A stretch of 64,000 nt of DNA from positions 1,857,052 to 1,921,051 of the forward strand of contig CP126532.1 in the NCBI GenBank assembly GCA_030167145.1, written 5' to 3'. A model generated the notes under the pieces. The model saw nothing but the letters and a program-made list of their open reading frames with translations. It did not search any database and had not been told where the DNA came from. Shown here piece by piece: positions 14,207-55,088 of this stretch (position 1 is the first letter of the stretch; each line of letters begins with the position of its first letter). The translations under genes and the position numbers were made by a program. The DNA comes from Ktedonobacterales bacterium. Lineage in GTDB: Bacteria > Chloroflexota > Ktedonobacteria > Ktedonobacterales > JADMIN01.

Positions 14207-14351
14207 GCGGAGCGGGCGGTTGAAACCGCGCGACGGGCGCACGCCGTGCGCCCCTACAATGGCCTACGGCCGCTCCGCTTCGCTCACAGCCTGCTCCGCT
14301 CCTACACGTCGCTAGCTGCGCCGCAGGCTGGCCCCGCCTGCGCGGGTTTGG
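14207..14351. repeat. Mosaic intergenic repeat, long form with an extra hairpin module
   Basis: Same family as 1838-1958 and 18183-18301. This copy carries an inserted GGGCGCACGCCGTGCGCCCCTAC hairpin module, which also occurs alone at 22784-22808 and 34858-34878. Confidence 0.85.
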
Positions 14352-14579
14352 GACAGACGGGTGTCCGCAGGAATAGGTGAAAGCACATAATGCCGCGGCT
14401 CAACATCGTTCGATGGGGACGTAGAGGGCAACGCGGCATACCTTGCTCGCTACCATTACCAATTATTCGGACGATAGAGGGAACGGTGATGGTAGGTGTC
14501 CAGGAGGCTAGGATCTTTGTTGTCTCAGCGCATCTCATTTTCATAGTGGCAGCCGCCTGGCCGTAAGGGGAGAGTAGAG

Positions 14580-16700: not shown

Positions 16701-18008
16701 CTACGGTTCCAGGCGATGGAGGTCGCGCGGGAAGGTGGTGGCGAGCTTGACGTTGGGCAGGCCGGTGAGCTGGGTGAGCACGCGCTCCAGGCCGATGGCG
16801 AAGCCGCCTTCGGGCGGCATGCCGTAGCGGAACGCTTCGAGATAGGTCACGAAGGGCGCGACCGGCAGCCCCGCGCGCTCCAGCGCCGCCAGATAGTCGG
16901 CGTAGCGGTGTAGCCGCTGGCCGCCCGTCACCAGTTCCATCCCCCGAAAGAGCAGGTCGAACGAGTTCGAGTACTCAGGACGTTCCGGGTCGGGATGCGT
17001 ATAGAACGGGCGTTTGCTCATCGGATAGCCCGAAACGTAGAGGAAGTCGCTGCCGAACTCCTCACGCGCCCACTCGCCGAGCCAGCGTTCGTCCTGTGGC
17101 GAGAGGTCCGGCTCGCCACGCACGTCGAGGCCGTGGCGCTGAAAGATCCACTCCTGCGCCTCGCTGAAGTGCAGGTGGGGAATCTCTGCCGGGACGGTGG
17201 GCAGCGCGACACGCAATAGCTCTAGCTCGGCGGGGTAGCCTGCCGCGAGATGGGCAAAGATGTCCGCCAGCACGTCGCGTAGCAGCGCCATCACGGTGAA
17301 GTGGTTTTCGATGAAGCCGAATTCGGCGTCCAGGCTGACGTACTCGTTGATGTGGCGCGTGGTGTCGTGCGGCTCGGCGCGGAAGACGGGGCCGACCTCG
17401 AAGACGCGCTCGAAGACGCCGACGAGCATCTGCTTATAAAACTGCGGACTCTGCGCCAGATAGGCGGGGCGTCCGAAGTAGTCAAGCATGAAGACGTTGG
17501 CGCCACTCTCGGTGGCTGACGCGACGATCTTGGGGGTGGCGATTTCGGTGAAGCGGCGCGCGGTGAGCGCGGCGCGGAAGCCGGCCATGACGCCCGCGCC
17601 CAGCCGCAGGATTGCGCGGCGGGTTGGATGACGGTCGGCGACGACGGCGTGATCGAGGATCGTGGTGATGCTCGCTTTGATTTCACGCTTGTTGAGTGCG
17701 ACGGGTGGCGCTTCGGTGACGGCGGTAATCAGCTCGATATGCGGCGCAGTGAGTTCGACGCCACCGGGGGCCTGAGGCGCGGCGGTGGCCATACCGGTGA
17801 CGGCGATCACGCTCTCCACGCCCGCGCCTGCCGCCGTGAGCGGCGCGAGGGTGGCTTCATCTTCGACGACGGCTTGGACCGTGCCCCAGCCGTCGCGGAG
17901 GACGAGGAAGGTGATTCCGCCCATGCGGCGCAGGGAGTGGAGCCAGCCGGCGAGATGCACGCGCTCGCCAAGATGCGCGCCTACTTCGGTGGTATGGATG
18001 CGTTCCAT
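16701..18008 (-). CDS. aspS: Aspartate--tRNA ligase, short archaeal/type-2 form
   Basis: N-terminal OB fold (GWLHSLRRMGGITFLVLRDGWG). Class II motif 2 is VGPVFRAEPHDTTRHINEY and motif 3 is GGFAIGLERV. At 435 aa it lacks the bacterial insertion domain. Confidence 0.9.
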   Translation of the reverse strand: MERIHTTEVGAHLGERVHLAGWLHSLRRMGGITFLVLRDGWGTVQAVVEDEATLAPLTAAGAGVESVIAVTGMATAAPQAPGGVELTAPHIELITAVTEAPPVALNKREIKASITTILDHAVVADRHPTRRAILRLGAGVMAGFRAALTARRFTEIATPKIVASATESGANVFMLDYFGRPAYLAQSPQFYKQMLVGVFERVFEVGPVFRAEPHDTTRHINEYVSLDAEFGFIENHFTVMALLRDVLADIFAHLAAGYPAELELLRVALPTVPAEIPHLHFSEAQEWIFQRHGLDVRGEPDLSPQDERWLGEWAREEFGSDFLYVSGYPMSKRPFYTHPDPERPEYSNSFDLLFRGMELVTGGQRLHRYADYLAALERAGLPVAPFVTYLEAFRYGMPPEGGFAIGLERVLTQLTGLPNVKLATTFPRDLHRLEP

Positions 18009-18182
18009 AAACGTCTACTCCTGACTGTCATTCGTGTGGGGTCAACTCGGCGCATGGATGGGAAGCGCGCCCAGAGTGACCCCAGCACACACAGCGTCAG
18101 GCGCGTTCCCTCAGATCGTCGGCGTCGGCGTCGGCGTTTGCATCGTCTCCCATTGGGTGATCCTCTTTCTTTGGTTCAGATA

Positions 18183-18301
18183 GCGGGCGGTTGAAACCGC
18201 GCCTGCATGGCGTGCCGCCGCTCCGCTGCGCTCACAGCCTGCTCCGCTCCTACACGTCGCTAGCTGCGCCGCAGGCTGGCCCCGCCTGCGCGGGTTTGGG
18301 G
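18183..18301. repeat. Mosaic intergenic repeat, long form, inside the aspS 5' leader
   Basis: Near-identical to 14207-14351 (minus the inserted module) and to the reverse complement of 1838-1958. Confidence 0.85.
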
Positions 18302-18344
18302 CAGAGGCAGACAGGAATGTCTGCCCTACCAGGAGCGAATAGAG

Positions 18345-18386
18345 AGCAAATAAAAAGCCCTCATCCTCATATTGGAGGACGAGGGC
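18345..18386 (-). terminator. T-box terminator hairpin
   Basis: Minus strand: GCCCUCGUCCUCC, loop AAUAU, GAGGAUGAGGGC, followed by UUUUUAUUU. Confidence 0.8.
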
Positions 18387-18680
18387 CATTGCGCGCCGCT
18401 CGTGGTGCCACCACCATTCGCCCCGACGGCGGACGCATAGTACGCGCGGCGGAGCCTCTATCGGGTCCGCCCACGGGAAGTGGGAGCGAAACCGTCACGC
18501 GGTAACGGGCGTGTCCCGAAGCCGGTTAGTGCATTGCACATGAAGTGTGCGAATGGTTCGCCGGTTGGCTCTGGGGTGTCGCGTCGGAAGCGTTGGCGGC
18601 GGCGCTCGCAGCGTGTGCGCCGCTCTCTGAAGCGTCAGGATGCTTCCCGCATGGTCCCCATCATGGCCAGTATGATCTTG
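18345..18680 (-). promoter_or_regulatory. T-box riboswitch leader with Asp (GAC) specifier, upstream of aspS
   Basis: All on the minus strand. T-box core AAUGGUGGUGGCACCACGAG is the reverse complement of 18399-18418. The antiterminator has A1 GGUGG/CCUCC, bulge UGGCACC and A2 ACGAG/CUCGU, and it competes with the terminator. UGGC would pair with a GCCA tRNA end. F-box CCGUUA is the reverse complement of 18503-18508. Stem I spans 18567-18668 with a K-turn-like base (GGCCAUGAUGGGG / CCCCAGAGCC), an AGAGAG bulge and the specifier GAC followed by A (reverse complement of 18577-18580). Confidence 0.8.
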
Positions 18681-18911
18681 CGCCCCACTGTATCACAGAC
18701 GCCGGGCGAGCGTCAAATGCGATTCCTTCTCCCCACGAGCGCGGATGCCGGGGAGGTTATCACGTAGAGTCTCAAGAGCATGACCGGCGGGACTTTCCGC
18801 TTCATTGCGACTTTTATAGCAGCTAGGCGTATGATGGGATAGTCGGGGGAAGAGTGCCCTATCATCATAGCAATGTGGTGACATTTTGCCGACGCGAAGG
18901 GGGCAGGAGAC

Positions 18912-19421
18912 ATGCTTCAGCGTATTCGCTCTTTGGGTAAAGCTGGCCGGGGAGCGCTCGTCATCGCCCTGGCGTTGCTCGTGGCGCTTGCGTTTGCCGT
19001 GGTGTTCGGCAGCTTCGGGCGGACATTGCTTGCTGGAGGGGGCACAGCGGGGCCAACTACAGTTCATGTTGTCCGTCATGAAAACATCCCACAAAACCAT
19101 CTTCCACCGCTCGATATGACGATAAGGGACGCTGCCAAGGTGGGGAAGCTCGCGACTATGATTCGCGCTTTGCCTCGATTTGTCTTCACAGGCCCAATGA
19201 GCTGCCCGGCGGATTTTGGTGTGGAGTACGATATGACCTTCACCGATAGTCATGGCGACGCTGTGCTGTCAGTTCAAGCGAACCCATTTGGGTGTAGCGG
19301 CCTGACGATAAACGGGGGCGATCAGCGGCGGGCGACCGATGCATTTTGGGCACAAATGTCGGACACGATTAGTGTGCCATTGTCCACGCTGATGGCGATA
19401 CCAACCGGCACTTCTCGTTAG
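18912..19421 (+). CDS. Hypothetical membrane-anchored or secreted protein
   Basis: RBS AGGAGA. The N-terminus has a TM/signal segment (ALVIALALLVALAFAVVFGSF). No recognisable domain. Confidence 0.6.
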   Translation: MLQRIRSLGKAGRGALVIALALLVALAFAVVFGSFGRTLLAGGGTAGPTTVHVVRHENIPQNHLPPLDMTIRDAAKVGKLATMIRALPRFVFTGPMSCPADFGVEYDMTFTDSHGDAVLSVQANPFGCSGLTINGGDQRRATDAFWAQMSDTISVPLSTLMAIPTGTSR

Positions 19422-19449: not shown

Positions 19450-19653
19450 GTGAAGGTCAAAGAGGCGATAGAATACATTGAACGCGATGGCTGGTTCATT
19501 GTGCGACAAGAGGGCAGTCATCACCAGTATCATCATCTGGCGAAGCCGGGAACGGTGACGATAGCCGGAAAGCCAAGCGCCGACCTAGACCCTGGAACCG
19601 CGCACAATATTTTCAAGCAGGCGCACATCCCCTGGCCGAAGGGTCGCAAGTAA
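19450..19653 (+). CDS. hicA: Type II toxin HicA (mRNA interferase)
   Basis: KVKEAIEYIERDGWFIVRQEGSHHQYHH..KPGTVTIAGKPSADLDPGTAHNIFKQA is a typical YcfA/HicA sequence. It lies directly upstream of hicB. Confidence 0.85.
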   Translation: MKVKEAIEYIERDGWFIVRQEGSHHQYHHLAKPGTVTIAGKPSADLDPGTAHNIFKQAHIPWPKGRK

Positions 19654-19660
19654 GGGAAGG

Positions 19661-19924
19661 ATGAGAAAGACGATGCGTTACCGCTATCTTGTGGTCTATC
19701 GCCCAACACCTACAGGCTATGCCGCCAGTGTCCCGGAGTTGCCAGGATGCGTGGCTGCTGGCGACTCACTCGGAGAAACACGCGAGCTGATGCGGAAGGC
19801 GCTAGAATGGCATCTCGAAGATATGCAGGCAACCGGGCAGGACATCCTGGCTACAGACCCTGCTGAGGTCGCCGAGTACCTGGAAGTTGACGTAGCCAGC
19901 CCGGCCAGCGTAGCAAGCAGCTAA
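19661..19924 (+). CDS. hicB: Type II antitoxin HicB
   Basis: YRYLVVYRPTPTGYAASVPELPGCVAAGDSLGETRELMRKALEWHLEDM is a typical HicB N-terminal domain. Confidence 0.8.
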   Translation: MRKTMRYRYLVVYRPTPTGYAASVPELPGCVAAGDSLGETRELMRKALEWHLEDMQATGQDILATDPAEVAEYLEVDVASPASVASS

Positions 19925-33018: not shown

Positions 33019-34728
33019 TCAGGCATCCACGGCGTAGAGGTAGCTGTCACCTGAGCCGATATAGACCACATTGCCCGCTATGGTCGGTGCGGCGTAGACA
33101 GCGTTGTCCGCTTGGAAGCGCCAGCGCTGCGCGCCCGTGGTTGCATCGAATGCATAGACATAGCCGTCAAACGAGCCGGCATAGACGGCGCCATTAGCCG
33201 CCGCGGGCGCGCTCACAGCGCCGCCCGCCTGGAAACGCCAGATCTGTACGCCGGTCATCGCATCTACGGCGTAGAGGTAGTAGTCTTCGGAGCCGACATA
33301 AGCAGCGCCGTTCGCGACGGCGGGAGCGCTCACAATGTCACCCGTTTTGAAGCGCCAAAGTTGTGTACCCTTCACCGCATCCACCGCGTAGAGGTAATGA
33401 TCCTTTGAGCTGACATAAACCACGTCATTCGCCACCGCCAAAGATGAAGACGCGATGGCGCCGCCCGTTTTGAAGCGCCAGAGTTGCGTACCTTTTGTCG
33501 CGTCCACCGCGTAGAGATAGTGATCAAACGAGCCGACATAGACCACGCCATTCGCCACTATTGGCGAGGCGAAAACAACGTCACCCGTTTTGAAGCGCCA
33601 AAGTTGGTTGCCAGTTTTCGCGTCCACGGCATAGAGATAGTGATCAAACGAGCCAGCATAAACGATGCCGTTCACCACAGATGGAGAGGAGACCGCATTG
33701 TTGTTGGTTTGGAAGGTCCAAATCTGTGCCCCCGTGTTGGCGTCCACGGCGTAGAGATAGCCATCTGTTGAGCTAAAATAGAGAATGCCATCCACAACCA
33801 TTGGCGAGGAGTTCACAGGGCCACCTGTCTGGATACGCCATAGCTGTGTACCTGCACTCGCATCCACAGCATACAGATAGTGGTCATTTGAGCCGACATA
33901 GATCACGTCATACGCCACTGCGGGCGAGGAGTCCACAATGCCGCCCGTCTGGAAGCGCCAGCGCAGGTTACCCGGAATCGGAATCGGGGTTGAAGTCGGA
34001 GTGGGCGCGAGCGTCGCTGTGGGCATGGGCGTAGGTGTGGGTGTGCGGGACAACTGCGTGTGCGCTGAAATCACATCATGTGATGCAACCAGCCAGGCTG
34101 AGCTTCCAATGGTCGCCAGGGCAGCCAAACTCACTCCGGTCCGTATGAGTAGCTTGCGTCTCGACACGACTGGCATGGGAGGCGTCGGATGAGAAGCAGG
34201 ATACGGGCTGGATGTTGGGGTTGGCTGTATATGCCACGTCGGAGACGAAACCGAGGGCGTCAACGGCATCGGGGGTGGAGGCGTGTTCGGCGTAAGGGGT
34301 TTCGGATCTATCAAGGTAGGGGTCTGCGTGGCGCTTACGGCAGCGACAATACTATCTATGATCTGCTCAAAGGGTATCGCTAACGCATCAATCCAGAAGA
34401 AGGCGCTGAGCATCGGTGGCACTGTGCATGGACCGATGCGCACCGGCAGGAGCAGGCGCGTCGGATCATCCGGCATCAAGCCAAGCGCGGTCTGTATTTC
34501 GAGCTTGACCCAGAAGGAGTCGAGCGCATGCTGCGTCAGTAGCACAATGAAGGTTGGGCGCTGCTGGATCTCCCGCTCAATCATTGCGCCAAGTATCTGC
34601 CCGTTCTGCGCATTGTTTCGGTCGTACCATACATCGAGGCTACGTGCCCGCAGCGCCGCCACATACCGGTCGCACAGCTCATTATCGGCGTGCGAATGGC
34701 TCACGAAAACGGCGTGCGTAGTGTCCAT
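33019..34728 (-). CDS. TIR domain - transmembrane - PQQ-like beta-propeller repeat protein
   Basis: ATG at 34728 (MDTTHAVFVSHSHADNEL...DVWYD...FWVKLE) gives the TIR domain. A Pro-rich linker follows, then one TM helix (LLIRTGVSLAALATIGSSAWLV). Next comes a Thr/Pro linker and about nine repeats of YLYAVDAxxGxQLWRFKTGG. Confidence 0.8.
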   Translation of the reverse strand: MDTTHAVFVSHSHADNELCDRYVAALRARSLDVWYDRNNAQNGQILGAMIEREIQQRPTFIVLLTQHALDSFWVKLEIQTALGLMPDDPTRLLLPVRIGPCTVPPMLSAFFWIDALAIPFEQIIDSIVAAVSATQTPTLIDPKPLTPNTPPPPMPLTPSVSSPTWHIQPTPTSSPYPASHPTPPMPVVSRRKLLIRTGVSLAALATIGSSAWLVASHDVISAHTQLSRTPTPTPMPTATLAPTPTSTPIPIPGNLRWRFQTGGIVDSSPAVAYDVIYVGSNDHYLYAVDASAGTQLWRIQTGGPVNSSPMVVDGILYFSSTDGYLYAVDANTGAQIWTFQTNNNAVSSPSVVNGIVYAGSFDHYLYAVDAKTGNQLWRFKTGDVVFASPIVANGVVYVGSFDHYLYAVDATKGTQLWRFKTGGAIASSSLAVANDVVYVSSKDHYLYAVDAVKGTQLWRFKTGDIVSAPAVANGAAYVGSEDYYLYAVDAMTGVQIWRFQAGGAVSAPAAANGAVYAGSFDGYVYAFDATTGAQRWRFQADNAVYAAPTIAGNVVYIGSGDSYLYAVDA

Positions 34729-45273: not shown

Positions 45274-47385
45274 CTATTTGCCCTTCACGTAGCCCTTCGC
45301 GCGCAGTTGCTGGCCGATGGAGGACCAGTCGTATTTGCCGGTAAGCAGTTGTTGCCATGCTGCTTTGGCTTCTTTCCATGGTATCACTTCGCAGAAGGGG
45401 GCGATGTTGAGGAGCACGCCGTCGTTGAGGTCGGGGGTGAGGTAGTGGCGGGCGGCGCGGTCGAGGGCGTCGTGAAATTCGCGCAGGTCGGCGAGCAGGG
45501 TTTCTTGGCGGTCCAGGGCCTGGGCGGCGCGCCGGGCTTCGGGGCCGGTGGGTCCGGCGGCGGCTTTGGCGGCGTGTAGTTCGTCGAGGCGCTGTTCTTC
45601 GAGCCGGATTTTGGGCAGGAGGTGGAGGGTGAGGGCTTTGAAGATGAGGTCGGCGTCGAGGCGGTGGTAGTAGAGCCAGATGGCGTAGTGGCGTTTGGGG
45701 GATTGCAGCAGCCAGTAGATGGGGGCTTTGCGGCGGCTCTTGGAGTAGCGCGAGATGTGGAAGTCGAAGAAGAGGCGCGGGTTGCGGAGATATTCGCGCA
45801 GGTCGCGCACGCCGAGCAGCGCGCAGGCTTCGGCTTCGATGGCGCTGGCGCGGTCGCCCCAGAGGTGATCGAGGACGAGGCGGATGCGGCGCAGGAGGTC
45901 GTTGGGGGCGTCGGGGTCGTCTACGAGGATGCCGTCCCAGGCGATACCTAACCCCCCGGCCCCCTTCCCTGCGAGGGAAGGGGGAGTGGAGGGGGCGTCG
46001 AGCGTGGTGGGGTCGGGGAGGGTGATGGCGTTGGGACGGGTGCGGAGCCAGGCTTCGCTGGCGATGTGGTCGCGGGTGGCGGGGAGGCCGTCGTGGCCGA
46101 CCAGCGCGCCGGGGGCGCAGACGGGCAGCGGGGCGAAGGGGTCGGCAAGGCGCGGGGCGAGCGTGGGGTCGTGGGCGATACGCACGTCCCAGCGGCCAAA
46201 GGCGCAGCCGAGGGCGTACATGATGAGGTTGGCAGCTTCGGTGCGGGCGCGCTGAAGTCCGTTGCCGGCATTGGCGTTGGATTGAGCATCGCGCTCTTCG
46301 TCGCGGTCGTCGCCAGCTTCGTCGCCAGTCGCCACGGCTCCTACTTCCGCTGGCGGCGAAGATGCCTCGATATGGGCGCGATCATCGGGGGAGAAGCCGT
46401 AGAGGGCGTAGCAGCGGTCATCTATCTCGCGCTGGATGGTGGCGAGGCGCTGGACGCGGGCGGCGTCTGCGTTGGCGAGGAGGCTGAGGGCGGCGGCGAG
46501 GGTGGGCTGGGCGCGCAGGCGGACGAGCGCGGGGACGGTGAAGGGGTGGGTGACTTCGTCGTCGCGGTCAGATTCCCGCTTGCAGTCGTGGGCCTCGCGG
46601 GCGAGGGTGGCGAGGGTGTGCGCGTCATCGGCGCTGAGGTCGGGGACGGGGGTACGCTGGACGACACCGACTTCGTAGGAGCCGAACGCCATTTGCATCG
46701 AGAGCAGCGCGCCGAAAGAGGCTGAGTTGACCATGGCGAGCAACGCGAGGAGATCTGTCGGCTCGTCATCTGAGACGAATAGGGCCGGGCCTTTGTCGGC
46801 GAAGATGCAGCCAGCGGGCATGACGCGCACGCTGAAGCCGCCTTGCGTGCGGCGGGGGTAGGTGAGGCCGGGGCGGAAGTAGTAGTCGAGGGCCTCGGGG
46901 CGCTCTATCTCGCGACCGGGGCGTCCATAGAAGTTGCGGTAGGTGTGGCGCGATTCGTCCCAATCAGCAAGTAGGTGCATATCGTAGTAGAAGGGCGAAT
47001 AGCTACCGCCTTTCGCAAATGTTGCCCATCTGATGTTCCAGCTAACTGTAATGGGTAATACCTCCCACCACGTTCGAACACGTTGGAAATCATCGCCAGT
47101 GCTTGAGCCTCGGCGCGCCTCACGTCCATCCCCTTCGAAGGGCGGGAGTTCGGTGAAGAGTCGGCGTACATCCTCGCTGACCCAGTAGGCGAAGGGGGAG
47201 CCGGGGATCTGGCGGAAGGAGGCGGGGTCGAGGGTGAAGAGACCTAACCCCCCCAGCCCCCCTTCCCTACGTGGGAAGGGGGGAGTGGTGGCGGCGCGGT
47301 GGGCGGCGGTGGCGGCGCGTAGGGCGGCGGGTTTGTCGTCGGCGGCGAGGAGGCGGATGAAGGTGGTGGTGTGGGGCATGGTCAT
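45274..47385 (-). CDS. pglX: PglX-like protein, C-terminal half (specificity and C-terminal domains) of the split second paralog
   Basis: It is colinear with residues after the MTase core of the full-length paralog (FRQIPGSPFAYWV vs FDAIPGSPWVYQI; KAPIYWLLQSPKRHYAIWLYYH vs KRPIYWLLQSPKRGYGVYLFAE; DLNDGVLLNIAP vs ELDDGILINLAP). Confidence 0.8.
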   Translation of the reverse strand: MTMPHTTTFIRLLAADDKPAALRAATAAHRAATTPPFPRREGGLGGLGLFTLDPASFRQIPGSPFAYWVSEDVRRLFTELPPFEGDGREARRGSSTGDDFQRVRTWWEVLPITVSWNIRWATFAKGGSYSPFYYDMHLLADWDESRHTYRNFYGRPGREIERPEALDYYFRPGLTYPRRTQGGFSVRVMPAGCIFADKGPALFVSDDEPTDLLALLAMVNSASFGALLSMQMAFGSYEVGVVQRTPVPDLSADDAHTLATLAREAHDCKRESDRDDEVTHPFTVPALVRLRAQPTLAAALSLLANADAARVQRLATIQREIDDRCYALYGFSPDDRAHIEASSPPAEVGAVATGDEAGDDRDEERDAQSNANAGNGLQRARTEAANLIMYALGCAFGRWDVRIAHDPTLAPRLADPFAPLPVCAPGALVGHDGLPATRDHIASEAWLRTRPNAITLPDPTTLDAPSTPPSLAGKGAGGLGIAWDGILVDDPDAPNDLLRRIRLVLDHLWGDRASAIEAEACALLGVRDLREYLRNPRLFFDFHISRYSKSRRKAPIYWLLQSPKRHYAIWLYYHRLDADLIFKALTLHLLPKIRLEEQRLDELHAAKAAAGPTGPEARRAAQALDRQETLLADLREFHDALDRAARHYLTPDLNDGVLLNIAPFCEVIPWKEAKAAWQQLLTGKYDWSSIGQQLRAKGYVKGK
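45947..45986. repeat. Palindromic element (GGKG family), single copy, in-frame in the pglX C-half
   Basis: CCTAACCCCCCGGCCCCCTTCCCTGCGAGGGAAGGGGGAG, with a 10-11 bp hairpin core. It is translated as PPSLAGKGAGGLG. Confidence 0.85.
47243..47284. repeat. Palindromic element (GGKG family), single copy, in-frame in the pglX C-half
   Basis: CCTAACCCCCCCAGCCCCCCTTCCCTACGTGGGAAGGGGGGA, translated as PPFPRREGGLGGLG. Confidence 0.85.
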
Positions 47386-47451
47386 GGTGGTGTCCTGGTG
47401 TTAGAATGAGCGCAATCCAGTGATCTAGAGGGGGAAGGTTGGAGCCTTCGG

Positions 47452-47478
47452 CGGCCCTGTATAGGGCCGTTTTTGTTT
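47452..47478 (+). terminator. Plus-strand rho-independent terminator inside the BREX operon gap
   Basis: CGGCCCT, loop GTAT, AGGGCCG, followed by TTTTTGTTT on the plus strand, which is antisense to the operon. Confidence 0.5.
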
Positions 47479-47496
47479 ATGCGAGTTGTGACTGAT

Positions 47497-47928
47497 CTAG
47501 GGAATGTACCAGCCTCTACGCGAGCGGCGGCCTTTGCCATATTGCGCTGGGATGCCGATGCCTAGCTCGTCTTCGGTGCGGTGCGTGCGGTGGGTGCGGG
47601 TAATGTTGGTGTCGCGGTATTCGGTCTCCCAGTCGTGGTGTTTGTGGCGCGGTCGGTCAGGCTTTTTGCGCGTGCGCTTCGCCGGTGGTCGTGGCTGGGC
47701 GGGACGGGTGAACCAGTCGGTGATGCCTCGCGCGGGCTTGGTTTCGAGTCCGGCGGGCGTGGGCAGCCCAGGGCCGGTCACGTAGTAGAAGCAGTGTGTG
47801 CCTTTCGCTGGCTGCTGCCGGAGCTTGTCCGCGTGGGTGGTGGCTTCGGCGAGCGTCTTGAAGCTGGCGGCTAGCTTATGCTGGTCCCCGATGCGGCGGT
47901 AGACCGAGTATTTGCTCATGGTACCCAT
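47497..47928 (-). CDS. Small basic hypothetical protein inserted between the two pglX halves
   Basis: RBS GGAGAGGA precedes ATGGGTACCATG. 143 aa. The structured-looking N-terminal ~55 aa are followed by a strongly basic tail (KRTRKKPDRPRHKHH...GKGRRSRRGW). Confidence 0.6.
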   Translation of the reverse strand: MGTMSKYSVYRRIGDQHKLAASFKTLAEATTHADKLRQQPAKGTHCFYYVTGPGLPTPAGLETKPARGITDWFTRPAQPRPPAKRTRKKPDRPRHKHHDWETEYRDTNITRTHRTHRTEDELGIGIPAQYGKGRRSRRGWYIP

Positions 47929-47997
47929 CCTCTCCGCGAGTTCAAGGGCGAACGTCTGTCGCGATCATGCCAACAGTATGAGTATGGCGACGATAGT

Positions 47998-50358
47998 TCA
48001 TGGGTTTTTCTCCAGAACGTAGGCGGCGGTTTCGACCATGGCGGTATCGAGGACGCCGTAGCCGAGGTCGGCGAGGGCGATGGGGCGGGCTTCGGTGAGC
48101 AGGATGTCTTCGCGCCACTTCTGGAACGAGGTGAGGAAGAAGCCGGTGCGCGAGGTAATGGCGCCGAGGCGTCCGCTGGGTTCGAGCAGGGCGAGGCCGC
48201 GTTCGACGAAGGCGGCGTAAAGATCATTTTTGGTGCGGGGATAGGTTTTCTCGATGTAGGGCTTGGCGGGGGCGCTGGGTTCGCCGAACGGGGGATTCAT
48301 CAGTACGACGCTGTAGCACTTCTCCAGCAGTTCGATGAGCGCGAAGCCACGGGCGGCGTCCTCGGCGAAGAGGTGGCGAGTGTAGTCGTCGTCGCTGGTG
48401 GTGGCGTCTTCGGCAAAGCGGCGCAAGGCGGCGAGGACGCGCGGCTCGGCCTCGGTTTCGTAGAAGCGCGCGTCGGAGACACCTTCGTAGTTGAGCGTCT
48501 GCTGTTGTGGTGGCTGCCCCTGCGCGAAGAGGGTAAGCTGGACGTTGCCACCGCCGGTTCTGATCCACTCGCGTTTGGCGTTGGCGATCTCCTGGCGCAG
48601 GGCGACCTCGACCTGGAGCAGCGAGCCAGCCTCACCGGCGAGGCGCATCTCACCCCATATATCGCGGACAAAGGGGTCGAGCGCGGGCGGATCGAGGGTC
48701 TTGGTGAAGGCGTCGAGCAGGTCACGCTCGCCGGGCATTGGCTCGGCATAGACGAGATTGGCGCGGCGGATGGGCGGGCGCTGGTCGCGCGGGAGGCTGA
48801 GCGCGGCGTATTCGCGCTGGGCGCGCAGCCAGAGGGCGAGCGCGGCGATCTGGACGGCGCGGAGGTCAATATCTACGCCGTGCAGGTTGTGGCGTAAGAT
48901 CAGGGCGGGAACGGCGGCTTGATACGCGGGGAAGTCGCTGGCGAACTCGCTCTGGAGCGCGGGGCCGAGGTCATCATCTGCCCAGGCTTCGTGATAGATG
49001 CGCACGAGCAGGTCGAAGCAGTAGAGCAGGAAGTGGCCGCTGCCGCAGGCGGGATCAAGGATACGTAGTTCGCGGGGGTCGCGCTTGGCGCGATGGGGGA
49101 TGATTTCGACTTCGCGATTCCACGCCTCGCAGATGGCGCGATGGAGTGCCCGCCAGTAGTCCAGGTCTTTGCCCTCTGGCGTCTCGCCGAAGTGATGCCA
49201 GCGGCGCTGCTCAAAGAAGAGACAGAGGCGTAGCTCTTCGAAGCTGCCGTTGATATTGCCCGTCTCGACGTATTCTTGCTGCTTGTCGTTCGCAATGGAA
49301 GCGACCATATCGAAATCGCGCGCTTCCGCAGATGTATCGTGCGCCAGGTGTGTCTGGGCGTAGGCATAGCCGTCTACCGTGAGCGCATAGCGCATTATGG
49401 CGTCAACAGAGGTTGCGGCGGGATTGGGGCGGGTCCACAGCTCTCCACCACCCTCGCCCGGCATCACCCACGCGTCCTGTTCGGCATTGAACATGAGCGG
49501 CTCGTGCTGACCACGGCGCAGCCAGATGGGGTGTGGGGTGATGAGCATCGTTTCACAGAGGGTGGCGAGGCTGGTGTGGCCGTGGGTCATCTCCCACCAG
49601 AGGCGCCCAAGCGTGTTATCTGCCAGGAATTCGACGACGTAGCGCGGGGTGTAGAACTGATTGCGGAAGGCTAACTCGTAGCTGTTGCGCGGGGCCTGGC
49701 TGGCTTTGCGCGCCTCGTCGCGTAGCTCTTTGGGGGTGAAGTACTGGTAAATCCAGCCGATGGTCTCGTCGGCGTCCCAGACGCTGGCTAGCTCGGCATC
49801 GTTGAGGAGGGCGAGCACGTCTTCGAGCACGCGCTGTGGCGGGAAGAGCCGGTTGGCGGGGTCGTGCGGCGAGAAGAGGGCGGGCAGCTCGCTGGCCAGG
49901 GTCTGCCCAGTCCATTCGAGGAAGTGGCGATAGGCGAGATCCTGGCGGCCAGCGGACCAGAGGGTTTCTTCGCCGGGATTGTCGGCGAGATAGAACTTGA
50001 AGCCGTTGCTGTTGAGGCTACGGGAGACGGTCTCGCGGATGAGCTTGCGGCGTTCGAGCAGCTTGTAGGCGCAGAGGCGATTGAGATGCGTGAAGGCGAC
50101 TTCGCGGATAAGCTGAGCGACGGCATCGTGCGCGGAGAAGCGGCGGGCGCCGAGGTGGGCGAGATACCGCACGACCTGCGCGCGATAGGCGAGGTCGGCG
50201 GGGGAGAGGTGGGCCATGCGCGCGGCTGGCTCGACTGCGCCGTGGCGGTGGATGCCAAACTGGCCTTCGAGTAGCTCGGCGACGGTGTCTTCGAGCAGCT
50301 TGCGGCACTGTGTGACGGCGAGGCGCAGGGTGTTGCGGATAGATTTATCGAGTGTCAT
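47998..50358 (-). CDS. pglX: PglX-like N6-adenine methyltransferase, N-terminal half of the split second paralog
   Basis: N-terminal helical domain (REVAFTHLNRLCAYKLLERRKLI; DETIGWIYQYF). MTase motif I is ILDPACGSGHFLLYCFD and motif IV is VLMNPPFGEPS. It ends right after the MTase core (AAYVLEKNP*). Confidence 0.85.
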   Translation of the reverse strand: MTLDKSIRNTLRLAVTQCRKLLEDTVAELLEGQFGIHRHGAVEPAARMAHLSPADLAYRAQVVRYLAHLGARRFSAHDAVAQLIREVAFTHLNRLCAYKLLERRKLIRETVSRSLNSNGFKFYLADNPGEETLWSAGRQDLAYRHFLEWTGQTLASELPALFSPHDPANRLFPPQRVLEDVLALLNDAELASVWDADETIGWIYQYFTPKELRDEARKASQAPRNSYELAFRNQFYTPRYVVEFLADNTLGRLWWEMTHGHTSLATLCETMLITPHPIWLRRGQHEPLMFNAEQDAWVMPGEGGGELWTRPNPAATSVDAIMRYALTVDGYAYAQTHLAHDTSAEARDFDMVASIANDKQQEYVETGNINGSFEELRLCLFFEQRRWHHFGETPEGKDLDYWRALHRAICEAWNREVEIIPHRAKRDPRELRILDPACGSGHFLLYCFDLLVRIYHEAWADDDLGPALQSEFASDFPAYQAAVPALILRHNLHGVDIDLRAVQIAALALWLRAQREYAALSLPRDQRPPIRRANLVYAEPMPGERDLLDAFTKTLDPPALDPFVRDIWGEMRLAGEAGSLLQVEVALRQEIANAKREWIRTGGGNVQLTLFAQGQPPQQQTLNYEGVSDARFYETEAEPRVLAALRRFAEDATTSDDDYTRHLFAEDAARGFALIELLEKCYSVVLMNPPFGEPSAPAKPYIEKTYPRTKNDLYAAFVERGLALLEPSGRLGAITSRTGFFLTSFQKWREDILLTEARPIALADLGYGVLDTAMVETAAYVLEKNP

Positions 50359-51170
50359 CAGGAAACACCCCTCAGCGTGACGACGAGGTCGGCGTGTTGG
50401 GCGTGTTCGGCCACGAGTTCATCGAGGGCGAGGCAGATGTGCTTGATGGTATCCACGGATTGCGTGGCCCAGGAATAGCTGATCTCCTGCACCTTGCCGT
50501 CGGGGCTGGCTTGTGCGCGGTCGGCGCGGTGGACGATGTCGTTGCGGCGGCGAGTGGTTTCGTCAATGACGCTCATCAGCTCTTTCTTGTCGCGCTGGAG
50601 CTTGGCGGCGATCTGATCCCAGGGCTTTTCGAGGCTGAGCAGCGCGCCGACAACATGCACACCCTTGCGCGAACTGAGGTATTTGAAGGAGGTCTGCGCG
50701 AGGATGCGGTTGGCGATGAAGAGCGGGGCGTCGGGATCGCCGAGCAGCCGGAGGGTCTCGGAGAGCGAGAAGGTGAGGTCTTTGAAATACTCTTCGATGC
50801 TGGGATCGGGTGGCAGGAAGTCGCGCCCGCGCGCGGCGATCACCTGGGGGAGATTGGCGCGGAGCACGGATGGCAAGTAGGCGTCGAGTGCGGTGCAAGC
50901 GGCGACGACCGATTGGCGCAGCAGGTTGGCGAGCGACTGGCGTCGCAGGGCGCTCTTGGGGATCTGGGCGCTCTCGCGGACGAGGCCGACGAAGATCTCG
51001 TTGTAGATCAGCATCAGGTCTTCGTCGTGCTGGGCATGGACGATGCCGGCCAGCGCGGTGACCAGCTCGCCATCGGTCTGGATGGTCTGGCAGTCGAGCA
51101 GGCGGTAGACGCGCAGCAGCAGTTCGGCGGGGCGCATGGTGTCTTCGAATACCTGGCGTGGACTCGTCAC
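50358..51170 (-). CDS. HEPN-like (RiboL-PSP-type) protein embedded in the BREX operon
   Basis: Alpha-helical 270 aa protein with an Rx4H motif (ETTRRRNDIVHRAD) in the C-terminal third. Its stop overlaps the pglX-N start (TGATG). It lies 23 nt downstream of brxC. Confidence 0.65.
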   Translation of the reverse strand: MTSPRQVFEDTMRPAELLLRVYRLLDCQTIQTDGELVTALAGIVHAQHDEDLMLIYNEIFVGLVRESAQIPKSALRRQSLANLLRQSVVAACTALDAYLPSVLRANLPQVIAARGRDFLPPDPSIEEYFKDLTFSLSETLRLLGDPDAPLFIANRILAQTSFKYLSSRKGVHVVGALLSLEKPWDQIAAKLQRDKKELMSVIDETTRRRNDIVHRADRAQASPDGKVQEISYSWATQSVDTIKHICLALDELVAEHAQHADLVVTLRGVS

Positions 51171-51193
51171 GTGTGGCCCTCCTTCTCCTTGTC

Positions 51194-54100
51194 CTATTCG
51201 ACGATGATGCTGGCGCCCTGGGCGAGCAGCTTGAACAGTTCGTCGCGGAGCTTGTCGAGCGCGGCGTTCACGGCGGCTTCGGTGTCCAGGGAGTCGGGAA
51301 AGAATTCGGCGGCGCGCACGTGCGAGATGGCGCTCTGGCCGCGCTCCGCCGTATCGGGCGCAAGGGTCAGCTCCTGGATGCGCGCGAGCGCCTGGGATTT
51401 GAGGCCAGCGAGGGCGAGCAGGTCGGATTCGATTTGGCTGAGCGTCGCGTGGCAGTGCGGGCAGACGCTGGCCGTATCGTCGAGATGAAGACCTTCGATG
51501 CAGGCGCGCTGGGTCAGGGGATCGAGCAGCGCCGGACGGGAGGCTTCGGGCACATTGGGCCAGTTGGCGCTGCCCTTGATCGCGTCAATCGCGGCATCGA
51601 AGTGACTGTGCCGTTTCGCGTGCAGCCCCTCGTAGACATCGGCGTAGGCGGCGGCGAGCGCGCGGGTCATGTCGCGCAGGTGGGGCAAGCGCTCGTAGAG
51701 CGTGCTGTCACCGAGGATGTGCTGTATTTCCGCGGCTTTGTCGTCCAGCCCGTCGGTTGCGCCACGGGCTTGCAGGATGGGCCATTGCTGGTCGAGGACA
51801 CGCCGGGCGTCGCGGACGGTGGCGACGATGTGCTGCTCGGTCAGCGCTTCGCGGATGCGCCGGGCCTGGGCGCGCAGCTCTTTGAGGGAGGTGCTTTCGC
51901 CGGCGAGGGTGCGCACGCAATCGTCTGAGGCGGCGTTCTGGATGGCGGTGAGGGACTGGTAGTAGTCGTCGAGCAGGTCCATGCCGGGGAGGTCGTTGGC
52001 GCGGACCTCGGCGCGGGCGGGCAGCAGGAGCGCAATCTCCGCGTTGGCCAGCTTCTTCAGGCTTTCGGCGATGGCGCCTTCTTCGACATCCACCTCATCG
52101 CCGGTGAGGGTCTCGAAGCCACGCACGGCGGCGGTGAGGGTGCGCAAATCAATAGATTCGCGCGGGGTGAACGAGGCGCTGCGGAAGGCGGGGTTGGAGG
52201 TGAGCGGAGTGCGGCAGAGTGGGTCTTGCGCGTTGCGGTAGCGCCGGCCCTGATAGGTCACCTCGACGGCGCCCGCGCGCAGCAGCAGCGCCAGCACCAG
52301 CTTGATGACGTCGAGTTCCCAGCCGTAGGAAAGGCCGGTGAAGTGGGCCTCCAGCTCTTTGCCGGTGACGCGGTTGCCGTAGGAGTGCTCTTTCTTGAGA
52401 TAGTCGAGCACCTCTTTGGCGATCTCGGCGTGGACATGGGGGACGAACTTCGCGCCCTCTTTGGTGACGAGGTTGAGGCCGTGCTCGCCACCGTAGAATA
52501 CTTGCGGGAGCGCGTTGAGGTTGGCGGCTTTGAGCACTTCGTCGGCTTCGTTGCCAGTGAGGCCGGGGCGAGCGCCCATCTCGAGCTTGGGATAGAGGTC
52601 GGGGACGACGGCGTTGAAGAGATTTCGGAAGATTTCGGCGAGCGATCTGCCGAGGTCGGAGGCGTCTTTGGAGATGCCGCGAAAGATGCTCTGGCCGCGT
52701 GCGAGCGCCGCCTCCAGCTTCTCGCGCAGGCGACTCTGGTAGCGCGCTTGCTCGCGTTTCTCGGCATCGAGGAGGGGGGTAAGCTCGGCGGCACGCTCGC
52801 CCTGCGCGCCCGCCTGGCTATATTTGGCGATCATCTGGCTGGAGGCATGCACCTGATTGATCAAGGTGTCTAACTCGGCATCCAGGGCGAAGATCCAGTA
52901 GATGTCGTTGGTGTGGTCGCCCATGCGGCTCTCGCTGCGGGCGTCTTCCAACCGGCTGGCAAGCTCGGTCGGCGCGTCGGCGACGCGGAGGGTGAGCGGA
53001 ATATCGCCCGTCGCAAGGCGCACGTCGTCCATGGTCAGTCCGACCTTGAAGGTGCGCTTGAGCGGGTGCTGGTAGGTGAGCAGTTTTTGGTCGGAGAAGA
53101 TTTTTAGCAGGGACTCGCGTTGAATCTCGTTGCGCTCGCGGGGTTTGGGTTCGAGATACTGCTTGCGCTCGGTATCCCAGTTCTTCTCCTGGGCGGTGAG
53201 CAGTTTCCAGCCTTCTTCGGTATGGCGGACGAACTGCGCTTGCTCCAACCTGCGGATCGCCGCTTGTACCTGCGGCAGCGGCGCGGACGCGCCCACCTGA
53301 TCCACCAGCACGGCGGCGACGTTGGCGTCGGTGCGAGGCAGGTCGCGCACGAATTCGAGCAGGCAGAGCGCCTTGGCGACGCGGGCGGCCCAGCCGGCAT
53401 CGTCGCGGTCACTCTTGAAGCGTTCGGTGATGTCGCTGATGTCTTTCTGCTTCTCAGACGAGAGACTGCCCTCGACCAGCTCGTAGATCAGATCGAGGGT
53501 GACGAGCCGCCCGACGGGCTGCCGCGCGAGATCGGTGCGCGGCGCGGTGAGCATGGAGTGCGCTTGTTTGATGATGGTGCGGTTGCTGCCGCTGATGTGG
53601 CGCGGCGCGCCGGGTTGGGAGCGGATGCCAGTCATGATATCTATCGAGAGGTCAATGTAGTGCGGCAGGTAGGGGTAGAAGCGCACGAAGTCGTCTTCGC
53701 GCACCTCACTCTTGCGGCTGGTGCGCTCCAGATGGCAGGAGGTGTTGAGCTGGCCCTGCGCCTGGGCGAAGATCTGGCGCAGTTCGGGGACGGCGCTGGG
53801 CTTCTTATCGAGCACGCGCTTGGTGGCGACTTCGCTGATGTCGGCGGGGGTGAGGTCCACGCGATGGCGGAAGCGGTCCTGCACCATGGCGAGCTGCACG
53901 CGGCGCGAGTCGAGGGCGGAGACGACTTCTTCGAGTTTCTCCTGGCTGGTGACGATGATCCAGATGGGGGCGATGGCCTGGCGGGCGCGGATGCGGTTCT
54001 TGCTCTCCTGGCCGAAGTGTTCGACCACGGCGCGCAGATCGTTGAGCTTGTCGGCGCTCTGCGAGACATACTGGCCCACTTCGTCTACGATGAAGGTGAG

Positions 54101-54862
54101 CGCTTTGCCGGGGCGGCGGCGCGCCATTAGCTCGAAGGCGCGATCCACCAGCTTTTTCGTGTTGATGTCTGCGGTACGCCCAGCCAGTGACCGCGCCCAA
54201 GAGTCGGCGGCGGGGTAGGTGCGTGGGTCGAGTTCGTGCAGCGCGGCACTGGCGCGATTCAGCTTCGTTGCGCCAGTGCGGACAACCTCCCAGGGTGGGC
54301 CGCCGTGCGCCTGAGCACAGGCGACGAATGCGTCGAGCTGGCCATCGCGCTCAAGCTCAATTTCTAGCTCGGCGATATCGAAGTCTTCGGCGTAACCCAG
54401 CGAGCGCAAGAGCTGGGCGTAGAGAAGCTCAGTGATGCGCTCGTTATTGGTACGTGCGGAACGCTCGACCATGACATCGAACATGATGACTTCGGTGGGG
54501 ATGCGCGCGGTGATGAAGTCTACCAGTTGCGAGATGGCGGGGTCGTCAAGCTGCTGCTTAAAGAGGTCGGCGGCGCGGTGGCCGAGCACGGTGCGATTGG
54601 CGAGGACGTAGCCGAGGTTTTTGGCGAAGGAGGATTTGCCGGAGCCGAAGAAGCCAGAGATCCAGATGCCGACGCCTTCGGTGAGATCGGTGGGCGCGTC
54701 GGCCATGGCTTTGAGCAATCCGTGATAGTGTTCGCGGATGCGTTTGGTGGCGACGTATTCGGTGAGTTCACTGTAGACGGTCTTTTCGTCTTCCTGGGTC
54801 ACCTTGATGATTTCTTCGATGTGCTGGTTCAGGTCGCGGCTGAGCAGGTCTTGTATGTGCAT
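51194..54862 (-). CDS. brxC: BREX P-loop ATPase BrxC/PglY
   Basis: 1222 aa. Walker A is GIWISGFFGSGKSSFAKNLGYVL and Walker B-like is LTFIVDEVGQY. Size and position are typical of BrxC. Confidence 0.9.
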   Translation of the reverse strand: MHIQDLLSRDLNQHIEEIIKVTQEDEKTVYSELTEYVATKRIREHYHGLLKAMADAPTDLTEGVGIWISGFFGSGKSSFAKNLGYVLANRTVLGHRAADLFKQQLDDPAISQLVDFITARIPTEVIMFDVMVERSARTNNERITELLYAQLLRSLGYAEDFDIAELEIELERDGQLDAFVACAQAHGGPPWEVVRTGATKLNRASAALHELDPRTYPAADSWARSLAGRTADINTKKLVDRAFELMARRRPGKALTFIVDEVGQYVSQSADKLNDLRAVVEHFGQESKNRIRARQAIAPIWIIVTSQEKLEEVVSALDSRRVQLAMVQDRFRHRVDLTPADISEVATKRVLDKKPSAVPELRQIFAQAQGQLNTSCHLERTSRKSEVREDDFVRFYPYLPHYIDLSIDIMTGIRSQPGAPRHISGSNRTIIKQAHSMLTAPRTDLARQPVGRLVTLDLIYELVEGSLSSEKQKDISDITERFKSDRDDAGWAARVAKALCLLEFVRDLPRTDANVAAVLVDQVGASAPLPQVQAAIRRLEQAQFVRHTEEGWKLLTAQEKNWDTERKQYLEPKPRERNEIQRESLLKIFSDQKLLTYQHPLKRTFKVGLTMDDVRLATGDIPLTLRVADAPTELASRLEDARSESRMGDHTNDIYWIFALDAELDTLINQVHASSQMIAKYSQAGAQGERAAELTPLLDAEKREQARYQSRLREKLEAALARGQSIFRGISKDASDLGRSLAEIFRNLFNAVVPDLYPKLEMGARPGLTGNEADEVLKAANLNALPQVFYGGEHGLNLVTKEGAKFVPHVHAEIAKEVLDYLKKEHSYGNRVTGKELEAHFTGLSYGWELDVIKLVLALLLRAGAVEVTYQGRRYRNAQDPLCRTPLTSNPAFRSASFTPRESIDLRTLTAAVRGFETLTGDEVDVEEGAIAESLKKLANAEIALLLPARAEVRANDLPGMDLLDDYYQSLTAIQNAASDDCVRTLAGESTSLKELRAQARRIREALTEQHIVATVRDARRVLDQQWPILQARGATDGLDDKAAEIQHILGDSTLYERLPHLRDMTRALAAAYADVYEGLHAKRHSHFDAAIDAIKGSANWPNVPEASRPALLDPLTQRACIEGLHLDDTASVCPHCHATLSQIESDLLALAGLKSQALARIQELTLAPDTAERGQSAISHVRAAEFFPDSLDTEAAVNAALDKLRDELFKLLAQGASIIVE

Positions 54863-54863
54863 A

Positions 54864-55085
54864 CCTATCCCCCTGGCCCCCTTCCCTACGAGGGAAGGGG
54901 GGAATGTACCTATCCCCCTGGCCCCCTTCCCTACGAGGGAAGGGGGAAGACGGACCTATCCCCCTGGCCCCCTTCCCTACGAGGGAAGGGGGGAATGTAC
55001 CTATCCCCCTGGCCCCCTTCCCTACGAGGGAAGGGGGAAGACGGACCTATCCCCCTGGCCCCCTTCCCTACGAGGGAAGGGGGAA
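54864..55085. repeat. Tandem array of five GGKG-family palindromic elements (45/46 bp units alternating)
   Basis: CCTATCCCCCTGGCCCCCTTCCCTACGAGGGAAGGGGG(GAATGTA/AAGACGGA) x5 fills the whole gap between the DUF559 stop (55089) and the brxC ATG (54862). The last unit supplies the GGGGGA Shine-Dalgarno of brxC. Confidence 0.9.
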
Positions 55086-55088
55086 GTG

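Follow-up and report, generated by a model that had tools for sequence, protein, structure and literature searches.

In the leader of the Bacillus subtilis rtpA (anti-TRAP) gene, a T-box is combined with rtpLP, a leader peptide with Trp codons (Chen & Yanofsky, Science 2003 and Mol Cell 2004; cited in PMC10327191). Another element that joins a short coding sequence to a structured RNA is found upstream of leuA in actinobacteria; for this LEU element, described by Seliverstov et al. (2005), ribosome sensing has been doubted as a mechanism (PMC1262725). In Clostridium acetobutylicum, an Asn-specific T-box controls the operon of a non-discriminating aspartyl-tRNA synthetase (AspRS) and GatCAB (Saad et al. 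2012, in the summary given in PMC4206432). Chloroflexi do not possess asparaginyl-tRNA synthetase (AsnRS), and T-boxes have been documented in them (PMC2494555); for Ktedonobacteria (Chloroflexota), the early surveys consulted catalogue only a few T-boxes (ileS, trp). Here we describe the leader of the aspS gene in a 64,000-nt stretch of the genome of a soil Chloroflexota bacterium belonging to Ktedonobacterales (contig CP126532.1, positions 1,857,052 to 1,921,051; this whole stretch is called the window below). In this leader, a T-box stands in series with a second module that consists of an Asp/Asn-rich leader open reading frame (ORF) and a pseudoknot and is present at 24 loci. A tandem of this type has a precedent, and this particular module is apparently undescribed: no account of an Asp/Asn leader peptide, of this pseudoknot or of any leader peptide joined to a pseudoknot on a synthetase gene came up in the literature that could be searched (subscription-only papers being outside of it), and Rfam 15 has neither the leader peptide nor the pseudoknot.

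The two modules together make up a leader of ~670 nt. Judging from its profile matches, the protein encoded downstream is predicted to be an aspartate--tRNA(Asn) ligase, i.e., a non-discriminating AspRS of the archaeal type, and an identical protein in a metagenome-assembled genome (MAG) of Ktedonobacterales bears the annotation "nondiscriminating aspartyl-tRNA synthetase". The gene stands alone in the window and is not part of a gatCAB operon. The JGI annotation shows no genes in the 685 nt upstream of aspS (18008 to 18693), and two long ORFs over the leader (92 aa, 18111-18389; 186 aa, 18693-19253) were rejected as genes, as they have no family matches. For comparison, 80 orthologous Chloroflexota aspS loci were retrieved, 79 of them with upstream sequence (the L numbers below denote loci of this set). 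The T-box core of the window lies 404 nt from the aspS start, and among these relatives this distance varies from 75 to 480 nt.

The leader ORF has an unusual composition. In the window it contains six Asp/Asn within 10 residues, a value reached by none of 500 dinucleotide-preserving shuffles. Of the 41 gaps that measure 100 nt or more, a stop-free 10-residue stretch with at least five Asp/Asn is present on the sense strand of 18 and on the antisense strand of none, and 16 of the 41 gaps give p <= 0.01 against dinucleotide-preserving shuffles. An equivalent leader ORF was found in 24 loci, and all listed relatives have a purine-rich Shine-Dalgarno (SD)-like sequence 4-12 nt upstream of the leader ATG. 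When the central GAA/GGA/GAG codon of the helix strand S1 (see below) is taken as codon 0, the Asp/Asn codons are seen to occupy a strict register: codon -3 encodes Asp or Asn in 24/24 loci and codon -5 in 20/24; at codons -4 and -6 this is true of roughly half the loci, and at codons -2, -1 and 0 of none. The codons used are GAC (54), GAT (38), AAC (19) and AAT (10); Asp and Asn interchange between relatives, and nearly all leaders contain Asn codons. In a divergent group, to which three of the loci with an AAC-specific T-box belong, the core is reduced to a minimum such as ...GDANLWERA. The leader stop mostly lies at codon +3 (range -1 to +9). Its distance from the aspS ATG amounts to 88 nt in the window and, where relatives have the pseudoknot module, to 80-156 nt. 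Taken together, the leader ORF is probably a sensor of charged tRNA.

Three further observations concern this ORF. In L037 (2870-3163), there is no stop after S1 and the ORF reads through S2 into aspS out of frame, with 97 codons in total, which is either a real variant or an error of MAG assembly. Three Caldilineae loci possess Asp/Asn-rich ORFs without the pseudoknot, namely L053 (2877-3035; MNDGDADNADNANK...), L063 (2880-3008; MDDDDDNNDNPYD...) and L057 (2946-2993; MDTDFQDVEEEKDDE); these ORFs follow the T-box and read across, or end at, the SD and start codon of aspS, a layout which may be a simpler or an independent solution. The closest relative of the window leader as a whole is L003 (CAZYCD010000259.1, labelled 'uncultured Micromonosporaceae'), with the same leader SD and a peptide that ends in ...WERA. 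Its AspRS is of the Ktedonobacteria type (79% identical), and the contig is probably mis-binned.

The end of the leader ORF takes part in a structure composed of two helices, S1 and S2. The 5' strand of S1 is formed by the last codons of the ORF (in Dictyobacter, GAGGAAGGCAC), and since the strands follow each other in the order S1-5', S2-5', S1-3', S2-3', the topology is that of an H-type pseudoknot. In a MAFFT alignment of 19 loci, 89.9% of the cells are paired, compared with 34-49% in slid registers, and 14 of the 20 pairs are compensated. A covariance model was then built with S2 only as its structure, so that S1 was never imposed on the alignment. In the resulting alignment of 24 loci, S1 and S2 together have 92.4% paired cells (35-50% slid) and 16/20 compensated pairs; for S1 alone the figures are 93.1% (41-65% slid), with compensatory changes in 6/9 pairs, and for S2 they are 91.9%, with 10/11 pairs compensated. 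The model gave one match per locus, always on the sense strand between T-box and aspS, and a single match in the 64-kb window. Furthermore, it recovered six loci that had not been in the seed (L064, L073, L074, L077, L079, L081), in which both strands of S1 are changed jointly, to GGAGCGCGCC (5') and GGCGCGCUCC (3'). As the residues encoded over S1 vary (EEGT, RERA, GEDA, WERA) and the pairing is kept, the constraint lies on the RNA and not on the peptide. The module has been kept across lineages in which AspRS is only ~70% identical. The S1+S2 pseudoknot is thus very probably real.

Between the 3' end of S2 and the start codon of aspS there are 25-39 nt in 16 of 17 loci; in the window the distance is 25 nt by coordinates and 28 nt by alignment columns 113-124. 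No Rfam family matches positions 18030-18180, even at E <= 10. Several possible roles of single parts of the structure were considered and rejected. S2 is not an intrinsic terminator, since no U-tract follows it in any group and its loop comprises 30-45 nt. The near-invariant CUUCC of the S1 3' strand is not an anti-SD element, as in 17/18 loci its duplex with the aspS initiation region does not surpass those formed with random coding windows or with shuffled targets, and the S1 5', S2 5' and S2 3' strands do not behave as elements contacting the ribosome-binding site (RBS; median ranks 0.61-0.91, none of 17 at p <= 0.05). A role of the S2 loop as a mimic of the tRNA-Asp anticodon (GUC) in AspRS feedback was rejected as well, since on inspection the motif is seen in loops of the Dictyobacter type and is absent from the GC-rich group that includes the window. 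Because no terminator follows the structure, the module is not a classical transcription attenuator.

The upstream module, at 18348-18673 on the minus strand, is almost certainly a full-length terminator-type T-box with the Asp specifier GAC. RF00230 aligns to 18372-18673 over its whole length (model 1-219) with 38.3 bits and E = 1.1e-6 (local 1.2 kb search). The earlier note had placed a T-box on this strand and listed a Stem I at 18567-18668 with a K-turn-like base and an AGAGAG bulge, a GAC specifier followed by the purine A, an F-box CCGUUA, a core with the bulge UGGCACC and a type-2 aspS as the controlled gene; in the RF00230 alignment every one of these elements is found where it had been placed, and the predicted nature of the enzyme agrees with the type of the gene. 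Stem I was also recovered by the minimum free energy fold (-43.3 kcal/mol, z = -2.5) and is conserved in 75 relatives. The specifier stands at the specifier position of RF00230, and CGGGACACGCCCGUUA at 18503-18518 was aligned to the Stem IIA/B and F-box part of the model. The UGGC of the bulge would pair with a 3' GCCA acceptor end. The terminator (-26.1 kcal/mol, z = -5.8) was the only one found by the terminator scan. As the 3' strand of the antiterminator lies inside the 5' strand of the terminator, the two structures are mutually exclusive. This had been correctly claimed before, as had the U-tract; what had gone unmentioned is the central U-U mismatch in the antiterminator helix A1 (GGUGG/CCUCC), which is replaced by U-A in the L064/L074/L079 subgroup. 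A sigma-70-like promoter site (9/12 matches, TG before the -10 box) was detected ~15 nt upstream of the T-box, and the alignment of relatives has TGnTAnAnT-like -10 boxes at the equivalent position.

Among the relatives, the core GGUGG[C/U]ACCACG is found upstream of aspS in 75/79 loci, and the T-box core is identical or near-identical in 76 leaders. According to the Stem I alignment, the specifier is GAC in 70/74 leaders and AAC (Asn) in the remaining four (L056, L064, L074, L079); AAC was confirmed in Rfam's own alignments for L056 (64 bits, 2639-2957) and L079 (43 bits, 2186-2471). At these four loci, the same non-discriminating AspRS gene would, by its specifier, be tuned to tRNA-Asn. Three of them (L064, L074, L079) also have the minimal GD[A/T]N leader. 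In the UGGN bulge, the variable base is a pyrimidine throughout, with C in 36 leaders and U in 40. As only G pairs with both, a G discriminator is predicted, indirectly, for the tRNA partner; in tRNA-Asp and tRNA-Asn alike, the established discriminator is G73. The terminator and its U-tract are conserved in 42/42 aligned relatives (RNAalifold consensus), with a near-invariant 5' strand and a 3' strand that drifts via G-U pairs, a pattern to be expected for a 5' strand that has two alternative partners. Two T-box cores per gene were observed in L043 (269 and 124 nt upstream of aspS) and L054 (653 and 125 nt), which suggests, as far as can be judged from core motifs, tandem T-boxes in some Ardenticatenaceae and Ktedonobacteria genomes. 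Taken alone, the T-box of the window is a routine further member of a well-known family.

The linker behind S1 offers a possible output for the second module. Its bases can form a third helix, S3, with the stretch at or over the SD of aspS. In 11 of the 24 loci (about one is expected by chance), the duplex is better than 95% of shuffles, and it has compensatory variants among close relatives. S3 takes up the linker and begins either at the last bases of S1 or in overlap with them, so that S1 and S3 are mutually exclusive. The SD of the window is predicted to be unpaired with a probability of 0.33 in the hairpin and of 0.71 in the pseudoknot.

On this basis, the following course of events can be proposed. 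The T-box would bind uncharged tRNA-Asp through the GAC specifier and the UGGC bulge, which would stabilize the antiterminator and allow read-through past 18348-18387. The read-through transcript would carry the Asp/Asn ORF, the last codons of which, being the 5' strand of S1, can pair with the loop of S2. If Asp-tRNA-Asp or Asn-tRNA-Asn is scarce, the ribosome would stall before S1 and the S1+S2 pseudoknot would form; the linker behind S1 would then be stretched across the pseudoknot, the ribosome-binding region of aspS would be open and AspRS would be made (on). If both tRNAs are charged, the ribosome would pass codon -3, invade S1, reach the stop and be released, after which the linker could zip onto the region of the aspS SD, with S3 extending S2 into a long hairpin and lowering initiation (off). 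Judging from published footprint and helicase distances, codon -3 in the A site would put the first pair of S1 approximately at the entrance of the mRNA channel, and is about the closest position at which a ribosome could stall without unwinding S1.

The on-when-starved direction agrees with the upstream T-box and with physiology. Since the enzyme charges both tRNA-Asp and tRNA-Asn and the T-box reads only one tRNA, a mixed Asp/Asn leader would add a second input, and this idea fits the Asn codons in nearly all leaders, the four AAC specifiers and the three overlapping ORFs of Caldilineae. As a whole, the explanation of the locus as a tandem sensor, with a T-box followed by a leader ORF and pseudoknot, is the one we favor, with some confidence. 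The direction and output of the switch as proposed, modelled from physiology and relative helix stabilities, are tentative and somewhat doubtful. That the module represents an undescribed class of ribosome-actuated pseudoknot/extended-hairpin switch which reads the pools of charged Asp- and Asn-tRNA in series with a T-box is a proposal of slightly better standing, which may be correct and is put forward with reserve.

A number of observations weigh against this explanation. The T-box score is below the RF00230 gathering cut-off of 93, and the whole-window Rfam scan at gathering thresholds returned no match; the search with RF00230, proposed in the earlier note as a check, thus gave local significance and stayed under the curated cut-off, and did not refute the T-box. 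None of 20 related T-boxes reaches this score, and the T-boxes of the window, L056 and L079, which were scored at an E-value threshold, have 38-64 bits. The low score hence belongs to the clade as a whole, which the curated model under-scores, and does not indicate a false positive. A tRNA-Asp gene is present neither in the window nor in 60 related loci, and the discriminator base could therefore not be read directly. Closer to the switch, S3 is not significant in 13 of the 24 loci, and in the window alone it has -13.1 kcal/mol and p = 0.10. The mean predicted gain in SD accessibility is small (0.43 to 0.53; at least 0.2 in 6/24 loci). No S1 or S2 strand is complementary to the initiation region of aspS above chance. 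Nested folds in which a ribosome was placed at the first Asp codons or at the stop, or in which both strands of S1 were blocked, gave no consistent change in SD accessibility; pseudoknots are outside such modelling. The closest AspRS relatives (L002, L004-L007; 75-79% identity) have only a T-box, with its core 84-102 nt from the start, so that the module is dispensable and patchy, by gain or loss, even within Ktedonobacteraceae. In the window, the two modules are parted by a 115-nt repeat, and their coupling may be looser than in relatives. For the LEU element, mutation of the Leu codons reportedly left regulation unchanged (PMC1262725), which calls for caution with cognate-codon upstream ORFs as sensors. 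Finally, a ribosome terminating at the leader stop would itself melt S3, so that the coupling may instead be positive.

This last point leads to an opposite polarity, in which the hairpin of S3 and S2 would be the resting state that masks the RBS, and a ribosome that reaches the leader stop would unwind S3 and activate aspS. In that case less AspRS would be made when ribosomes stall at the Asp/Asn codons, or else the leader would be a plain translation enhancer. In favor of this scheme, the leader stop lies inside the 5' strand of S3, and a ribosome placed at the stop raises the predicted SD accessibility in several loci (from 0.22 to 0.45 in the window, from 0 to 0.68 in L003 and from 0.21 to 0.57 in L014). 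However, the scheme leaves unexplained why Asp/Asn precedes S1 in 24/24 loci and why S1 exists and covaries at all, and it would work against the upstream T-box, which is switched on by uncharged tRNA-Asp. Moreover, in most loci the predicted stability of S1 exceeds that of S3, which makes the hairpin an improbable ground state. We consider this polarity unlikely.

The structure could also be the binding site of a protein or a small molecule, as in AspRS feedback of the E. coli thrS kind or with a regulator like that of the LEU element, whose authors favored a protein factor (PMC1262725); the ORF would then be incidental or an aid to folding. Such a site would account for the compactness and covariation of the structure, for its fixed distance from the RBS and for the near-invariant CUUCC/CUCC segment, which pairing with the RBS does not explain. 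Nevertheless, the start codon, the SD, the frame, the place of the stop and the register of Asp/Asn have all been conserved, with variation that is synonymous, loci of Caldilineae keep the Asp/Asn ORF without the structure, and the loops differ widely in length and sequence and have few conserved unpaired bases, unlike a ligand pocket; the GUC anticodon mimic in the loop is, on inspection, not conserved either. A ligand site is therefore quite improbable.

If the leader ORF acted on transcription, with the ribosome position setting Rho-dependent termination or RNA decay, the weak evidence for SD sequestration would be of no consequence, and the use of Rho has indeed been proposed for terminator-less leader peptides (PMC1262725). 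Against this idea, there is no U-tract after S2 even in AT-richer relatives, the T-boxes of which have clear U-tract terminators, no C-rich, G-poor rut-like tract is apparent on inspection, and the fixed spacing of 25-39 nt to the start points to the ribosome-binding site; we regard it as poorly probable. That only the T-box is functional, with the ORF and helices being neutral or stabilizing a long 5' untranslated region, agrees with the lack of the module in L002 and L004-L007 and with the mobile repeat tolerated inside the leader, and is very improbable in view of the enrichment statistics, the codon register, the covariation in two crossing helices, the six divergent members recovered by the covariance model and the persistence of the module at ~70% AspRS identity.

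Table 1. Features of the aspS leader in the window and corresponding elements of related loci (positions in the window).
Feature	Position	Strand	Sequence or details
Promoter-like site	18687-18716	(-)	TTGACG 18711-18716, 18-nt spacer, TG-extended TACAGT 18687-18692
T-box Stem I	18567-18668	(-)	GA/K-turn base GGCCAUGAUGGGG ... CCCCAGAGCC; Rfam alignment, model 1-103
AGAGAG bulge of Stem I	18623-18628	(-)	
Distal loop of Stem I	18606-18616	(-)	ACACGCUGCGA
Specifier GAC (Asp)	18578-18580	(-)	followed by purine A 18577; at RF00230 specifier position
Stem II	18520-18566	(-)	with GAA/ACUA S-turn; Rfam alignment
Stem IIA/IIB pseudoknot region	within 18492-18566 feature	(-)	with F-box CCGUUA 18503-18508; Rfam alignment
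T-box core	18399-18418	(-)	AAUGGUGGUGGCACCACGAG; 7-nt bulge UGGCACC 18404-18410
Antiterminator 3' strand	18374-18383	(-)	CUCGUCCUCC
Intrinsic terminator	18348-18387	(-)	13-bp stem 18356-18387; U-tract UUUUUAUUU 18348-18356
115-nt dispersed repeat	18182-18296		GC-rich, hairpin-forming; between T-box terminator and leader ORF
Leader SD	18161-18168	(-)	AAAGAGGA; 7 nt before leader ATG
Leader ORF	18097-18153	(-)	MGDDANADADADDLRERA; 18 codons and stop; 6 Asp, 1 Asn
Regulatory codon GAT	18115-18117	(-)	position -3
S1 5' strand	18100-18110	(-)	GGGAACGCGCC; last codons of leader ORF
S3 5' strand	18096-18101	(-)	CCUGAC; overlaps S1 end and leader stop UGA 18097-18099
S2 5' strand	18077-18090	(-)	GUGUGCUGGGGUCA; independent prediction by RNAalifold
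S1 3' strand	18060-18071	(-)	GGCGCGCUUCCC; start of S2 loop
S2 3' strand	18034-18044	(-)	UGACCCCACAC
S3 3' strand	18018-18025	(-)	GUCAGG 18020-18025; overlaps aspS SD AGGAG 18018-18022
aspS	16701-18008	(-)	435 aa; NF003483 521 bits (cut-off 353); TIGR00458 373 bits
L003 S3			linker CUCCUG / partner near SD CAGGAG
L014 S3			linker GUCUCCU / partner near SD AGGAGAU
L003 leader peptide			MADDCDCDCDGDNDPWERA
L008 leader peptide			MADDENDNDIEEGA
L062 leader peptide			MDDDDDTGDANPGGDA
L032 leader peptide			MDKDGDDNDLEEGTRSL
L033 leader peptide			MMDNDGDDNDREEGAHGLL
L069 leader peptide			MPMESDDGNDDDDNNTINILGST

The gap of ~340 nt between the T-box and aspS, which the earlier note had taken as mere distance, holds both the second module and the 115-nt repeat, which resembles miniature inverted-repeat transposable elements (MITE) or repetitive extragenic palindromes (REP). 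In a three-copy alignment, this repeat has at least three near-identical copies in the 64 kb, the others lying at 1838-1952 (inverted, 96%) and 14259-14357 (95%), and partial relatives were noticed near 4506, 14211, 22625 and 36896. It accounts for one third of the gap and is not a part of the regulator. If the repeat is subtracted, ~79 nt remain between the terminator and the element that follows, compared with mostly 17-70 nt in relatives; the leaders of Dictyobacter and Ktedonobacter robiniae do not contain the repeat. The 199 nt from the terminator to the leader ORF were also considered as a further element and rejected, as their fold is no better than that of shuffles (z = -1.9) and the repeat explains the length.

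Other repeats of the window include a 45-nt hairpin family (CCCCCUUCCCUnnnAGGGAAGGGGG; at least 13 copies, 45943-59108) with tandem arrays at 54860-55090, 55592-55796 and 58943-59108. Three tRNA calls made by ARAGORN (55627-55753, 58982-59070) overlap each other, lie inside these hairpin-repeat arrays and have no match to the Rfam tRNA model, and are very likely false positives. In-register tandem repeats at 287-1198 and 33022-33972 (102-nt units in 7-9 copies, 117-123-nt units in 8 copies) probably encode repeat-domain proteins. On the opposite strand, ~800 nt upstream of the aspS promoter, a HicA toxin/HicB antitoxin pair is located (19450-19924 (+); Pfam PF07927, PF15919, JGI calls).

Like other RF00230 T-boxes, the first module has the same canonical parts in the same order, a specifier that matches the gene, a UGGN bulge, mutually exclusive antiterminator and terminator, and a U-tract; it differs in being GC-rich, in the extra hairpins between F-box and Stem III, in the U-U of A1 and in its score below the cut-off. 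Pipelines that work at the Rfam cut-off would miss the aspS T-boxes of Chloroflexota, and the number of T-boxes in this phylum has probably been underestimated in censuses. The operon of C. acetobutylicum likewise has a T-box on a non-discriminating AspRS serving tRNA-dependent Asn synthesis, and the four relatives with AAC specifiers use the same codon; in contrast, the T-box of the window reads Asp, any Asn input would come from the leader ORF, and the gene is outside a gatCAB operon. If our explanation holds, a synthetase with two substrates has obtained a matching control with two inputs, and with the AAC specifiers and the structure-free ORFs of Caldilineae, evolution appears to explore the same problem in several ways.

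The second module shares with classical attenuators (E. coli pheST; trpS and leuS of Streptomyces) an ORF of cognate codons which end before the first alternative strand and are soon followed by the stop. It differs from them in having no terminator, in its crossing helices, in the use of two amino acids and in being an add-on to a T-box. More similar in architecture is the LEU element, which likewise comprises a short ORF with cognate codons and a pseudoknot and no terminator, and which has an alternative hairpin with a base stem reaching the SD, as proposed here for S2 and S3 (PMC1262725). In the LEU element, however, the run of Leu codons itself pairs with the SD, whereas in the window the Asp/Asn codons lie just 5' of S1 and it is the linker with the stop codon that is predicted to pair near the SD. 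The phylum, the sequence and the amino acid are different as well and the LEU element is not preceded by a T-box; the resemblance is one of architecture only. A pseudoknot strand embedded in an ORF, with an offset of three codons, is nevertheless a compact model for an RNA structure set by the ribosome, and may aid in reading the LEU element.

The leader of B. subtilis rtpA shows the same pairing of a T-box that responds to uncharged tRNA at the level of transcription with a subsequent cognate-codon ORF that responds to charged tRNA at the level of translation. As Chen and Yanofsky reportedly found, the stop of rtpLP adjoins the rtpA SD and the terminating ribosome blocks this SD directly, with no structured switch in between. 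This adjacency of stop and SD is absent from the window, with its 88 nt between stop and ATG, and occurs only in L053, L063 and L057 of Caldilineae. Furthermore, rtpLP contains three Trp codons, whereas the leader of the window combines Asp and Asn codons, places a pseudoknot/hairpin between ORF and gene, and precedes the synthetase gene itself. The tandem of T-box and leader peptide is known from one well-known case, rtpA; if the proposed explanation is true, the aspS leader of Ktedonobacterales and its relatives is a second, independent case, in another phylum and on a synthetase gene.

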